A DNA stretch of 64,000 nt from an uncultured bacterium (GTDB taxonomy: Bacteria > Patescibacteriota > Minisyncoccia > Phycocordibacterales > CAIRYW01). This document shows, one piece after another, positions 39,145-45,092 of this stretch. A program made the translations under genes and the position numbers. The stretch lies in contig CAVYBO010000001.1 of the NCBI GenBank assembly GCA_963766885.1, positions 68,352-132,351 of the forward strand. The letters run 5' to 3'. The stretch's first letter is position 1. The number at the start of each line of letters is the position of its first letter. The notes under the pieces are model-generated. The model saw only the letters and a program-made list of their open reading frames with translations. It was not told the DNA's origin and ran no database searches.

Positions 39145-41576
39145 GCTCCCTACACAGATGTTACGAAACCATCAATTTAAACGGGAAACATAAAGCCTCT
39201 TTATTGAGTGTTATATGAATCTCCCGCTTAAAAGCGGGTTTTTTGATTCCGAAAGGAATCATTCGCCTTTGGCGAATTACCGATTGACCACACTTTGATA
39301 AATAAATCCTGCCACGACGCTTTTGGTCTTTTGCCCTGTTAGGCAATTGACTGATCGAGGTCTTTTCTTGTCGGAGGCAGATGTTGCGCTGAATTTTTCG
39401 GCGCAACAAATCTCATAAAATTTTTCTCAAGAGAATTTTATGAGGCAGGTAAATATTCCAAAATTAATTTTTTGGAATATGTAGTAAGCAAAACAATTAG
39501 TGAATTAAAAATTAACCATTTTTAATTCACAGGCGGTTTTTACATTTCCTAATAGGAAATGTAAGAGCATATGGTGGATGCCTTGGCTTCAAAAGGCTAT
39601 GAAGGACGCAGCAAAGCAGCGATATGCTTCGGGGAGGTGCCTAGCAACCTTTGATCCGGAGATTTCCGAATGGGGAAACCCAATCAAACAAGATTTGATT
39701 GTTCTATGAGTAACATCATAGTTCGCGCACACAGGGAAGTAAAACATTTCAGTACCTGTAGGAATAGAAACTAAACAGTATTCCGCGAGTAGCGGCGAGC
39801 GAAAACGGATGAGCCCAAACTGGCATTTTTTAATCTTGTTCCGCATTTTGCGTAATGAGATTAAAAACTGTCAGGGTTGCAAGGCGGCAAATATCTTTAA
39901 TGATGAAAAGTTACAAATTATTTTGTTAGGAGAATTTGCTGGAAAGCAAAGCCCTAGAGGGTAACAGACCCGTATCCGAAAACGAAATAACTTTTATTGC
40001 CGTTCTTAAGTACCTCGAGACACGAGTGGCTCGGGGGAATCTGCCGGAACTAACCGGTAAGGCTAAATACTTTTGAAGACCGATAGTGAACTAGTACCGT
40101 GAGGGAAAGGTGAAAAGAACCCCGTTGAGGGGAGTGAAATAGATCTGAAACCATATGCTTACAAGGAGTCAGAGCGGATATTTATATCCGTCATGGCGTG
40201 CCTATTGAAGAATGAGCCAACGAGTTAATGTATAAAGCTGGCTAAAGGCGAGAGCCTGGAGCCACAGGGAAACCAAGTGTGAATAGCGCGAAATATAAGT
40301 TTTATACATTAGACCCGAAGCCAGAGCGAGCTACCCATGTGCAGGGTGAAGTTTATCGAAAGATAGATGGAGGCCCGAACCGTTGAGCCGTTCAACACTC
40401 TCGGATGACATGTGGGTTGAAGTGAAAAGCTAATCGAGCCTGGTAATAGCTGGTTCTCTCCGAAACAGCTTTTGGGCTGGCGTTGCGTGATCCTTCCGGG
40501 GGTAGAGCACTGGAAGGACTTGACAGGGAGAAATCTCGCAAGTCCTATCAACCTCCGAATACCGGAAATTTATAACGCAGCAGTTAGACCGTGGGGGCTA
40601 AGCTCCACTGGTCAAAAAGGGAAGAGCCTAGATCTCAAGTTAAGGTCCCTAAATCATAGCTAAGTGCATCACAAGGAGGTGAAGTTTCTCAGACACTGAG
40701 GAGGTTGGCTTAGAAGCAGCCATCCTTTAAAGAAAGCGTAACAGCTCACTCACTTAGAGACTTTGCACCGAAGATAATCGGGGCTAAAGCTATGTACCGA
40801 AACTGAGGGCTTTCAATTTCTTCGGAAATTGGGAGCGGTAGGAGAGTATTCGCATCTGCACTGAAGGCAAAGGGGTGACCCATGCTGGAGCGTTGCGAAG
40901 TAAGAATGTTGGCACAAGTAACCGCAATTAGAGTGAGATACTCTAACGTCGAAAGATCAAGGTTTCCTTGGCGATGAAGATCAGCCAAGGGTTAGTCGGT
41001 CCTAAGGGAATGGTGAGAACCGAACTCGATGGACACACGGTTAATATTCCGTGACTCATTGCATTGCGATGGAGGGACGAAGTTTAGTATGTATAGCGCA
41101 TTATGGATTTGCGTTTTCTTTTTAAGGATCAAGTGTAGGTAAATCCGCATTTGCCCGCAAGGGACATCCAAGAAAGGCGAGTAAGCTTGCAGCAATGCAG
41201 GCGAAGTATACAAAGCAAGCTTCCGAGAAAAACTTCTAAGCTTCAGATGCAATTGAACCGTACCGCAAACCGACACAGGTGATCAGGGCGAGTAGCCCAA
41301 GACGAACGAGTGAGAGGTCCTCAAGGAACTCGGCAAAAAAGCGACCGTAACTTCGGAATAAGGTCTGGCCACCGCAAGGTGGCCCGCAGCTAAAGTTTCT
41401 CTGGCGACTGTTTACCAAAAACACAGCTCCCTGCGAACTCGCAAGAGGATGTATAGGGGGTGACACCTGACCGATGCCAGAAGGTCAAACAGCGGCGTCT
41501 TTATATAGCAATATATAAAGGTGACTGTTGTAAGCCCTGGTGAATGTCGGCGATAACTATAATCGTCCTAAGGTAG

Positions 41577-42264
41577 GATTGCTGCCTTAGTAAAATCTAG
41601 CTATATGCTGGAAGGTCTGAGAATCTCAAGATACTATGGTATAATTATTCCATAGTAAAAAATCTATGAGTGCAGATAATCAGCAGGAAAGGCTAAAAAT
41701 TGAGAGTTGGATTGTTGGATTTACTGATGGAGAAGGTTGTTTCTCTGTAAGTATTATCAAAAACAAGACATCAAAAAGCGGTTGGCAAATATTTCCTGAG
41801 TTTGTAATAACTCAAGGAAAGAAAAGTCTTCCAGCGCTTGAAATATTTTTAAAATATTTCAAATGCGGAAAGATTTTTGTCAATCAAAGATATGATAACC
41901 ATAAAGAACATCTTTATCGTTACTGTGTCAGATCAATTAAAGAATTGCAGGAAATAATAATTCCATTCTTTAAGAAAAATCCTTTAATGACCCATAAACA
42001 GAATGACTTTGTGTTATTTTGCAAAATTATGGAAAAAATTTCTAAAGGAGAACATCTTAAAGTAGAAGGAATAATAAAAATTGCAAAACTGATTGAGCAG
42101 ATGAACCGCAAAAAGAAATCTCGGTTTTTAGAATCCTCAGAGACTACACGCTAGAACAACTATGCTACCGATAGTTTGTAAGATATAGTCCGAACTCATT
42201 GGCGACAATGAGAGTATTATAGAAATATAATACCGCGCTCGAAAGAGCAGTAACAAAATTAAGC
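41577..42264 (+). mobile_element. 23S intron 1 (group-I-like), inserted after CCTAAGGTAG (E. coli ~1917-1926 region), carrying a LAGLIDADG ORF
   Basis: The exon sequence is interrupted between GGTAG and CGAAATTCC, which are contiguous in E. coli 23S. Confidence 0.7.
41666..42154 (+). CDS. LAGLIDADG homing endonuclease (encoded in intron 1)
   Basis: WIVGFTDGEGCFSVSI is the LAGLIDADG motif. 162 aa. Confidence 0.8.
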   Translation: MSADNQQERLKIESWIVGFTDGEGCFSVSIIKNKTSKSGWQIFPEFVITQGKKSLPALEIFLKYFKCGKIFVNQRYDNHKEHLYRYCVRSIKELQEIIIPFFKKNPLMTHKQNDFVLFCKIMEKISKGEHLKVEGIIKIAKLIEQMNRKKKSRFLESSETTR

Positions 42265-42593
42265 GAAATTCCTTGTCAGGTAAGTTCTGACGCGCACGAA
42301 TGGTGTAACGACTGGAGAACTGTCTCGAGGACTTGCTCGGTGAAAATACAATACCGGTGAAGATGCCGGTTACCTGCAGTTAGACGAAAAGACCCCAGAA
42401 GCTTTACTGCAACTTGATATTGCGCTTACGCGTGTGCTGCGTAGCATAGGTGGGAGAGGTTATACGTATGATTTTGGTTGTACGGTACTCAACAGTGAAA
42501 TACCACTCTGTATTTGTGTAAGTGCTAACATTACCGGACAAAACCGGTGAAGGACAGTATCTGGTGGGCAGTTTTAGTGGGGCGCTATCCTTC

Positions 42594-43845: not shown

Positions 43846-43909
43846 CGTGAGACAGGTTGGTCTCCTATCTACTGCAGGCGTTGATTCTTGAGAGGATTTG
43901 TCCCTAGTA

Positions 43910-44762
43910 GCCCGCAAGGGCCTGCTACTTCACGAAGAAATTTGTGATGACAAATTGGCTAATAACGGTGAAGTCTTCATCATTTTCTGATTCTTTCAGC
44001 AAACACATTGCAACGGTCCAGTTGATGTGCTGAGAATTTACTTGAGGACCAGAAGATGTTAAGATAATACCGTGGGAAGTCGATCTAAAATTGAAAAGAA
44101 AACAGAGTTAGCATATATTGCAGGTTTTCTTGATGGTGATGGAAGCTTGATGCTTCAAATCAAAAAACGCAAAGATGGCAATATCGGCATACGATTTATG
44201 GCCACCATTTGCTTTTATCAAGATATCAGGCATGAAAATGAGCTCAATTGGATAAGAAAAGTTTTGGGTATCGGTTATATTTCCAAAAGAAATGATGGAA
44301 TGACCGAGCTGCGAATAAATGGTTTTAAGCAAGTTGAAGAAATTCTTCAGAATTTGCTGCCATATATTCGATTTAAAAAACTTCAAGGCGATGCATTACT
44401 AAATGCATGCCATATTCTTACCAAAACAAAGTTCAAAATGCTGACACAAAAGCAAATTATGTCTTTGGTTGATTCGATCTTGGTTATACAAAATGAAAAT
44501 TATGTTACTAAGAAGAAAAAAACAAAAGAAGAATTGCTCAAAATTTTAGGTTTGACCCCGTAACGACTGTTTCTGTCTTGCAAATGCAAACAGAATGACT
44601 TCTTGAATACTGGAAAGCTCACTTTTAGTGAACAGGTATCAAGTTGTAATACGCCAACCCTTCATCCATTAAAATATTTTGATGGAAAAGGTGAAGATAT
44701 AGTCTGCTCTCCTAGAAATAGGGGGTACTGTTTAATTCTAAATTTAATGAATTAAATTAAGC
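43910..44762 (+). mobile_element. 23S intron 4, inserted in the sarcin-ricin loop region (CCTAGTA|...|GACGAGAGGACCGG), carrying a LAGLIDADG ORF
   Basis: The exon is interrupted within the AGUACGAGAGGACC motif. Confidence 0.65.
44072..44563 (+). CDS. LAGLIDADG homing endonuclease (encoded in intron 4)
   Basis: LAYIAGFLDGDGSLMLQI. 163 aa. Confidence 0.8.
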   Translation: MGSRSKIEKKTELAYIAGFLDGDGSLMLQIKKRKDGNIGIRFMATICFYQDIRHENELNWIRKVLGIGYISKRNDGMTELRINGFKQVEEILQNLLPYIRFKKLQGDALLNACHILTKTKFKMLTQKQIMSLVDSILVIQNENYVTKKKKTKEELLKILGLTP

Positions 44763-45092
44763 GACGAGAGGACCGGGATGAACTGACCTCTGGTCTATCG
44801 GCTGTTCCGCCAGGAGCACTGCCGAGTAGCTACAGTCGGGATTGGATAAGCTCTGAAAGCATCTAAGAGCGAAGCCAACCTCAAGATTAGGAATCGTTAA
44901 GATCCGTGGGAGATGACCACGTTGATAGGCGTTAGGTGGAAAGCAAGCAATTGCCTGAGCCGAGACGTACTAATTAATCGATCCTATTAGGAAATGTGAA
45001 TGCCGCTTAAGTATGCAAATACTTTGGTTGCTTTGATTACTACAAAAAAAGAAAAGACAAATTTGAAAATTGGAATCTGAATTTTTGCGAAA

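Follow-up and report, generated by a model that had tools for sequence, protein, structure and literature searches.

Four group I introns in a Paceibacterota 23S rRNA gene, including a putative mosaic intron at site L2262 with an orphan reading frame

We analysed a stretch of 64,000 nucleotides (nt) from an uncultured bacterium (contig CAVYBO010000001.1 of assembly GCA_963766885.1, positions 68,352 to 132,351; hereafter the window, to which all positions without a locus name refer), in which we found what is most probably the single 23S rRNA gene of a Paceibacterota bacterium (Patescibacteria, also known as candidate phyla radiation, CPR) interrupted by four group I introns. The second intron appears, from comparative sequence evidence, to be a mosaic, whose P1-L1-P2 and P7'-P9 flanks belong to the lineage of introns inserted at its own site (L2262) and whose central P3-P8 block is of the endonuclease-bearing type known from sites L1931 and L2604. 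This central block seems to retain the first 13 codons of a LAGLIDADG endonuclease gene, the body of which would have been replaced by an unrelated helical frame of 60 codons.

Rfam recognised a bacterial large-subunit rRNA starting at 39550 (LSU_rRNA_bacteria, 1854.8 bits), and global alignment of the region to the Escherichia coli 23S gene (L001:1238-4142, 2905 nt) revealed four long insertions, measuring 687, 527, 393, and about 855 nt, which lie after U1931, U2262, U2593, and U2656 in E. coli numbering and are hence named L1931, L2262, L2593, and L2656. Once these insertions are removed, the exon sequence is 76% identical to E. coli 23S over the aligned columns. For the numbering we relied on landmark residues (pseudouridines 1911/1915/1917, m5U1939, P-loop G2251-2253, D2449, and sarcin-ricin G2655/A2660); according to these, the E. 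coli copy is in register at 2057-2262, and its count exceeds the standard one by one position at 1911-1939 and from 2449 onwards. The named homologues of the upstream ribosomal protein L10 gene are from Candidatus Paceibacterota or the Patescibacteria group. The original prediction, which was made from the sequence alone and placed a 23S gene with four introns at about 39560-44985, with about 2.4 kb of 5.4 kb intronic, agrees well with these results (2462 of 5432 nt). The gene, its introns, and their open reading frames (ORFs; lengths in amino acids, aa) are as follows:

39555..44986, forward strand: 23S rRNA gene, 5432 nt, as aligned globally to E. coli 23S.
39555-41574, 42262-42591, 43119-43452, 43846-43908, and 44764-44986, forward strand: the five exons, 2970 nt in sum.
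41575..42261, forward strand: intron 1, group I, 687 nt, after U1931 (L1931).
41666..42154, forward strand: ORF1 of intron 1, 162 aa, single-motif LAGLIDADG_1 homing endonuclease (Pfam PF00961, 8e-26, 91.4 bits).
42592..43118, forward strand: intron 2, group I, 527 nt, after U2262 (L2262), with a terminal G.
42788..43009, forward strand: ORF2, 73 aa, orphan, in the P6 loop of intron 2; residues 1-13 endonuclease-like, residues 14-73 unique, with two predicted helices.
43453..43845, forward strand: intron 3, group I without an ORF, 393 nt, after U2593 (L2593), with a terminal G.
43909..44763, forward strand: intron 4, group I, 855 nt, after U2656 in the sarcin-ricin loop (L2656), with a terminal G; 3' strand of P7 at 44696-44705.
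44072..44563, forward strand: ORF4 of intron 4, 163 aa, single-motif LAGLIDADG_1 homing endonuclease (Pfam, 3.4e-11, 44.4 bits).

Because the exon and intron ends have one or two bases in common, the registers of the junctions had to be fixed by rules, namely that an exon should end in U and an intron in G, and that P1 should pair. When read in this way, the 5' splice site of each of the four introns follows a U that forms a U.G wobble with the guide sequence. Intron 1 has P1 CUAAGGU/GCCUUAG with such a wobble and P10 AGC/GCU; P1 of intron 2 is UCCU/GGGA, for which the related intron of locus L022 has GCCU/GGGC, a compensatory change; P1 of intron 3 is GACCGU/GCGGUC; and in intron 4 a 9-bp helix with a GCAA cap (UAGUAGCCC-GCAA-GGGCCUGCUA, 43905-43927) places U2656.G at the splice site (UAGU/GCUA). 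The junctions proposed originally for introns 1, 2, and 4 were off by 1-2 nt at sites that were otherwise right: intron 2 is inserted after ...GCUAUCCU rather than ...CCUUC, and intron 4 after AGU rather than AGUA.

Further evidence for the group I identity comes from the ribozyme cores. Intron 3 was detected by the Rfam model Intron_gpI (RF00028) at 43610-43838 with 71.6 bits (gathering threshold, 50 bits), and the P/Q/R/S elements and core helices could be located in introns 1 and 2 at the following positions:

Intron 1: guide sequence GCCUUAG 41584-41590; P3/P4 41597-41611; Q 41670-41690; R 42138-42152; 3' strand of P7 42182-42191; P9 42195-42212.
Intron 2, 5' half: L1 insertion 42592-42663; guide sequence GGGGGA(C) 42664-42670; P3/P4 42698-42711; Q 42807-42827.
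Intron 2, 3' half: R 43038-43052; P8 43057-43072; 3' strand of P7 43077-43086; P9 43090-43107.

In the concatenated cores (99 nt) of 56 related introns, 95% of the cells of P3, P4, P5, and P7 are paired and 14 of the 22 core pairs show compensatory changes; none of 500 shuffles did as well, and shifted registers gave only 18-40% pairing. These results support the assignment of all four inserts as group I introns at conserved 23S sites.

The resemblance between introns 1 and 2, which the original prediction had attributed to paralogy, was then considered in the light of 80 loci that encode ORF1 relatives, mostly from Patescibacteria but also from DPANN archaea, Omnitrophota, and others, in which we mapped the 23S insertions. 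In the window there are just two copies of the 21-mer GTGCAGATAATCAGCAGGAAA (41670 and 42807), and two of the 15-mer CAGAGACTACACGCT (42138 and 43038), with none expected in shuffles, so that the exact copies reported at the start and the 3' end of the ORFs are indeed present; in the first shared segment, the two introns are distinguished by an indel of one base (ATCTAGC vs ATCAGC) and not, as had been stated, by a substitution. All three shared strings correspond to elements of the ribozyme core: ...GCUAUAUGCUGG is P3 with the 5' strand of P4, GUGCAGAUAAUCAGCAGGAAA is P5' and P4' (the Q element), and CAGAGACUACACGCU is P7 and P3' (the R element). These elements are conserved across the 56 introns from bacteria and archaea, and the 21-mer, with either C or U accepted at one position, is present in 42 of the 80 loci. 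It was also observed, together with a relative of the ORF1 endonuclease, in introns after U2604 in L035 (~7295), L065 (~8710), L078 (~261), L079 (~677), and L081 (~217), and thus one intron-endonuclease module occurs in at least three 23S sites.

Over the 99 core positions, the identity of intron 2 averages 72% to L1931 introns (maximum 82%, to that of L027, another genome) and likewise 72% to other L2262 introns. Between the core of intron 1 and those of the four L2262 introns compared with it, identity is 72-78%, and intron 2 does not stand out among the four; in segment-wise comparisons, some other intron was always nearer to intron 2 than intron 1 was. The resemblance of introns 1 and 2 is therefore at the level of the family and not private to this gene. 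It appears that they are alike as members of one superfamily, which is present at L1931, L2262, and L2604 at least. In this superfamily, the endonuclease ORF lies in the P6 loop and is read through the ribozyme core, with P5'/P4' encoding (S/G)ADNQQE and P7 encoding SSETTR. Hence the common architecture and core implied by the claim of paralogy stand, whereas the strings on which it was based are family-wide.

It might be argued from the exact 21-mer and 15-mer matches, and from the start of ORF2, which is homologous to the endonuclease start and in the same frame, that intron 2 is a recent copy of intron 1 transposed within the gene, whose LAGLIDADG cassette was then replaced or decayed. We consider this extremely unlikely. 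The matching strings are conserved core elements, and the core segments of introns 1 and 2 agree at 22/32, 21/28, 18/22, and 12/17 positions, compared with up to 29/32 and 24/28 when L1931 introns of other genomes are set against intron 2. Moreover, the 5' domain of intron 2 (about 100 nt), its P8, and its P9 tail recur in L2262 introns from other genomes but are missing in intron 1, and the closest relative of this genome has an L2262 intron but no L1931 intron. The part of the original idea that a cassette was replaced fits the data in that 13 codons of ORF2 are endonuclease-derived and the rest is unrelated, but intron 2 belongs to the L2262 lineage and is not a recent copy of intron 1.

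The mosaic make-up of intron 2 is indicated by a comparison of its parts. Its first ~100 nt, in which a hairpin (CCGUGGCGCC) is followed by an A-rich stretch, the guide sequence GGGGGAC, and P2, show a close alignment with the L2262 introns in L007 and L012, with no counterpart in intron 1. Close relatives of the genome were sought through synteny of the L10 gene; most of their contigs stop at or inside the 23S gene, and one alone, L203 (GCA_964964325.1), extends to the L2262 site. In this closest relative, the 23S exons are 89-96% identical to those in the window, L1931 is free of an intron, and L2262 contains the following intron:

L203:16332-16700: L2262 intron of L203, 369 nt.

The 5' domain of this intron is 90% identical to that of intron 2 and the last 40 nt are 92.5% identical, whereas its P3-P8 region is of another type, with P4 AUCGGG/UCCGAG (as in L012); its P5 hairpin is short, its P8 differs, and ORF2 is absent. 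The P5-P5a strands of intron 2 (UCUGGUGUAUCCGGAGCUACU ... AGUGAAAAAGCACCCGGUGCAGAU), on the other hand, match L1931-type introns such as those of L027, L071, L065, and L009. A core far more divergent than the periphery in genomes that are ~90% identical points to an exchange of the central block, and the orthology of the 5' domain and 3' end with other L2262 introns implies that intron 2 is an old resident of the L2262 lineage rather than a transposed intron 1. It is likely that the central block was exchanged by recombination or gene conversion between introns through their near-identical cores, followed by loss of the endonuclease. An endonuclease-bearing central block may have entered the L2262 intron, or may have been ancestral there, with the body of the endonuclease replaced later; in either case, the donor would not have been intron 1 in its present form.

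The first 13 codons of ORF2 are homologous to the 5' end of the LAGLIDADG gene of L1931-type introns (SEKAPGADNQQE vs SEKVFGADNQQE of L009), and residues 1-13, MSEKAPGADNQQE, match the N-terminal extension of the endonuclease (10 of 12 residues identical to L009). These 13 residues alone align in hhalign, and no other LAGLIDADG remnant could be detected in intron 2 with the family hidden Markov model (HMM) in six frames or with hhalign. Past the stop codon of ORF2, the same frame reads ...FSPETTR through P7. The description of ORF2 as a helical 73-aa protein lacking the LAGLIDADG motif agrees with the results of Pfam, the six-frame HMM search, and AlphaFold2. ORF2 has no significant match in Pfam or PHROGs, and a search of 5.8 billion proteins returned only itself. 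An exhaustive phmmer search of 1.8 billion representatives yielded no more than three long proteins, in each of which several repeated stretches were matched; we read these matches as coiled-coil bias. The P6-loop insert of intron 2 has no DNA or protein relative in the window or in any of the fetched loci.

It is possible, if doubtful, that ORF2 is a real lineage-specific gene for a small two-helix protein that is borne by the intron and replaces the endonuclease, for example as a splicing helper or as selfish cargo. An ORF of this length is somewhat improbable by chance (p ~0.06 in shuffles), its codon-usage score (0.18) lies between that of the window genes (0.27 +/- 0.10) and that of chance ORFs (0.00 +/- 0.08), only the top 1-2% of which reach it, and its GC content at codon positions 1, 2, and 3 (0.47, 0.32, and 0.27) is coding-like. 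AlphaFold2 predicts two helices, at residues 8-40 and 45-68, with good confidence (predicted local distance difference test score, pLDDT, 82). However, neither the protein searches nor the fetched loci contain a homologue, the L2262 intron of L203 lacks it, a fold search of the model against the PDB gave no match, no recognisable Shine-Dalgarno sequence is seen upstream, and K/E-rich helices are a typical product of AT-rich sequence.

Several observations weigh against our view of four self-splicing introns, one of them a mosaic with a lost endonuclease. Covariance models, which had been suggested as a check, placed intron 3 above the threshold, but introns 1, 2, and 4 gave only partial matches to Intron_gpI below the 50-bit gathering score (23.3 bits, E 0.0024; 17.8 bits; and 28 bits, E 3.4e-4, respectively), and of the core of intron 4 only the 3' strand of P7 and P9 were recovered, through its 28-bit partial match. 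We attribute these scores to large ORF and loop insertions, which was checked only indirectly: the L2262 intron of L022, which has no loop insertion, scores 73 bits, although it was detected by a narrow Rfam scan and missed when the entire L022 was scanned. For the mosaic interpretation, the comparison comprised a single close relative (L203) and four further L2262 introns. The coding-like codon usage of ORF2 does not fit simple decay. That the four introns self-splice from the pre-rRNA is presumed from their sequences. Finally, the last base of intron 1 (42261) is A and not the canonical G, whereas introns 2-4 have the canonical U(-1) and terminal G.

The terminal base of intron 1 deserves separate consideration. 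Shifting the register by 2 nt would restore a terminal G, but at the cost of a G-C pair at the 5' splice site. Among 69 L1931 introns (intron 1 and 68 introns of related loci), AGCG is preceded by G in 47, by A in 12, by U in 8, and by C in 2, i.e., 22 of the 69 lack a G there. Besides the window, a terminal A was observed in L005, L009, L019, L026, L032, L035, L036, L038, L053, L056, and L060, a terminal U in L006, L008, L010, L011, L016, L021, L024, and L065, and a terminal C in L012 and L014. The identity of the terminal base follows that of the P7 pair to which guanosine is normally bound (G with G-C in 46 introns, A with G-C in 12, U with A-U in 7 of 8, and C with U-A in 2 of 2). In the variants without G, P7 is still paired through compensatory changes, and the pairings with the exons back the same 3' junction. 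This pattern may be due to few independent events. It may be, though we regard it as unlikely, that intron 1 and about one third of the related L1931 introns splice without a terminal G, as natural ribozymes with a re-tuned nucleotide pocket and perhaps another cofactor.

On the other hand, the terminal A makes intron 1 the main candidate for an insert that does not splice at all, or for one of several, being either retained as an expansion segment or excised without ligation to leave a fragmented 23S rRNA. The L1931 intron of Simkania is reportedly unspliced, judging from the title of a 1999 report by Everett in a reference list, and the 23S genes of CPR bacteria also contain non-intron insertions thought to be excised by RNase III (PMC11270868). 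We regard this explanation as very unlikely. The four sites fall within H71, the P-loop region, the peptidyl-transferase ring, and the sarcin-ricin loop, and the structure of the ribosome suggests that 400-850 additional nt there should disrupt function. The ribozyme core helices have been kept by compensatory changes, and introns 2-4 have the canonical bases at their ends. In addition, a Coxiella 23S intron without the canonical terminal G is said, in the title of a 2007 report by Raghavan, to be self-splicing.

ORF1 and ORF4 both exceed the curated cut-off of PF00961 (23.1 bits), and intron 3 contains no meaningful ORF, in accordance with the original assignment of LAGLIDADG genes to introns 1 and 4 only. 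For ORF1, 4867 homologues were found, with identities of up to 84% among the top ones, and those with names are from Patescibacteria (Candidatus Yanofskybacteria and Vogelbacteria); ORF4 matches the HMM of the intron-1 family weakly (1e-6). ORF1 is translated through P5'/P4' (SADNQQE) and P7 (SSETTR). Two motifs of its protein family, (S/G)ADNQQER close to the N-terminus and SSET(T/K)R at the C-terminus, hardly vary, since the ORF is located in the P6 loop and its translation passes through Q and R. Introns 1 and 4 may have spread by endonuclease-driven homing; cleavage of the intron-less target site has been demonstrated for one CPR enzyme, I-ShaI (PMC11270868), and a similar activity is predicted for ORF1 and ORF4.

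Comparison of intron occupancy across related genomes, another check proposed at the outset, showed that homologous introns are present at all four sites in other CPR genomes. Among the 80 related loci, L1931 introns were found in most, L2262 introns in L004, L007, L012, and L022, L2593 introns in about 20 (nearly all with a terminal G), and L2656 introns homologous to intron 4 in L013, L021, L025, L064, and L067. A metagenome scan for further L2262 introns with the pattern CCGTGGCGCCN{20,50}GGGGGAC returned 120 loci, all of them unrelated and GC-rich, and none a 23S intron. In the L2262 introns of L004 (1978-3109) and L022 (1237-2185), a LAGLIDADG ORF (about 225-235 aa) is situated in the 3' (P9) region and not in the P6 loop, and so the L2262 lineage hosts endonuclease genes at two different places. 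We also noted that two contigs of relatives stop exactly at insertion sites, L203 (end 17034) at the L2593 junction and L210 (end 9604) 5 nt beyond the L1931 junction, which would fit populations polymorphic for intron presence whose variation breaks assemblies.

Some additional features of the gene and its surroundings were observed. Intron 3 has about 200 nt of 5' hairpins (43453-43659) before its guide sequence GCGGUC (43660-43665), and this region folds at -94.5 kcal/mol (z -8.6). In a long stable hairpin at 43441-43530, the last exon bases UUCAGACCGU pair with ACAGUCUGAA (43521-43530), with U2593 opposite an A; such a hairpin could compete with P1. The possibility that this G/C-rich hairpin is a repeated palindromic element was rejected, as it is present in a single copy in the window. 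In domain I of the 23S rRNA (39818-39920), about 39 and 43 extra nt relative to E. coli near 271-287 represent small expansions and not introns. Among the rRNA genes, which are unlinked, an unusual order is seen in which the 23S gene is followed by tRNA-Lys and 5S (39555-45548) and then, about 10.5 kb downstream, by an intron-free 16S gene and tRNA-Ile (56060-58421):

45093-45166: tRNA-Lys (Rfam).
45439-45548: 5S rRNA (Rfam).
56060-57603: 16S rRNA, uninterrupted (Rfam).

Introns and LAGLIDADG endonucleases in CPR rRNA genes were reportedly first noted by Brown et al. in 2015. In a later survey, 82% of the CPR 23S genes had insertions, with up to 16 insertions per rRNA gene, 45% of the CPR insertions were recognised as group I introns by Rfam, and LAGLIDADG_1 was concentrated at sites 1917, 1931, 1952, 2593, 2604, and 2657, the last being a CPR site of both group I introns and LAGLIDADG_1 (Tsurumaki et al. 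2024, PMC11270868). Given these precedents, a four-intron 23S gene is ordinary for the lineage. The window agrees with that survey in the host group, the gene, the multiplicity of introns, the single-domain LAGLIDADG_1 ORFs, and sites 1931, 2593, and 2657; it differs in that the survey gives no account of the mosaic make-up of individual introns or of a missing terminal G. The phenomenon, the sites, and the endonuclease family have already been described, and the locus adds little as one more multi-intron instance.

Intron 1 is comparable with the L1931 introns of Thermotoga, Synechococcus, Simkania, and organelles (PMC1995217; Nesbo and Doolittle 2003) in its site, size class, and 162-aa single-motif ORF. 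The Thermotoga and Synechococcus introns are 675-700 nt long, with a 162-aa LAGLIDADG ORF extending into the ribozyme core (PMC1995217); intron 1 likewise has an ORF extending into the core, no P2, and an extended P5, but it ends in A instead of G and is accompanied by three more introns in the gene. Site 2262 is a standard intron site of organellar rnl genes (PMC13449250). Organellar rnl L2262 introns, for example those of eustigmatophyte mitochondria, have LAGLIDADG genes (PMC13449250), as do the CPR introns of L004 and L022, both of these CPR introns with a double-length LAGLIDADG gene in the P9 region, whereas intron 2 has only an orphan ORF in the P6 loop. A further parallel is Coxiella 23S, which, to go by the title of the report by Raghavan (2007), also contains more than one self-splicing group I intron, one of them without a terminal G, at different sites.

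The presence of one core-plus-endonuclease module in L1931, L2262, and L2604 introns, together with mosaics such as intron 2, suggests that the conserved ribozyme cores may serve as substrates for recombination, which bears on how group I introns colonise new sites and lose or swap their cargo. Likewise, the link between the terminal base and the guanosine-binding pair of P7 would, if confirmed biochemically, bear on a rule of group I catalysis regarded as nearly universal.

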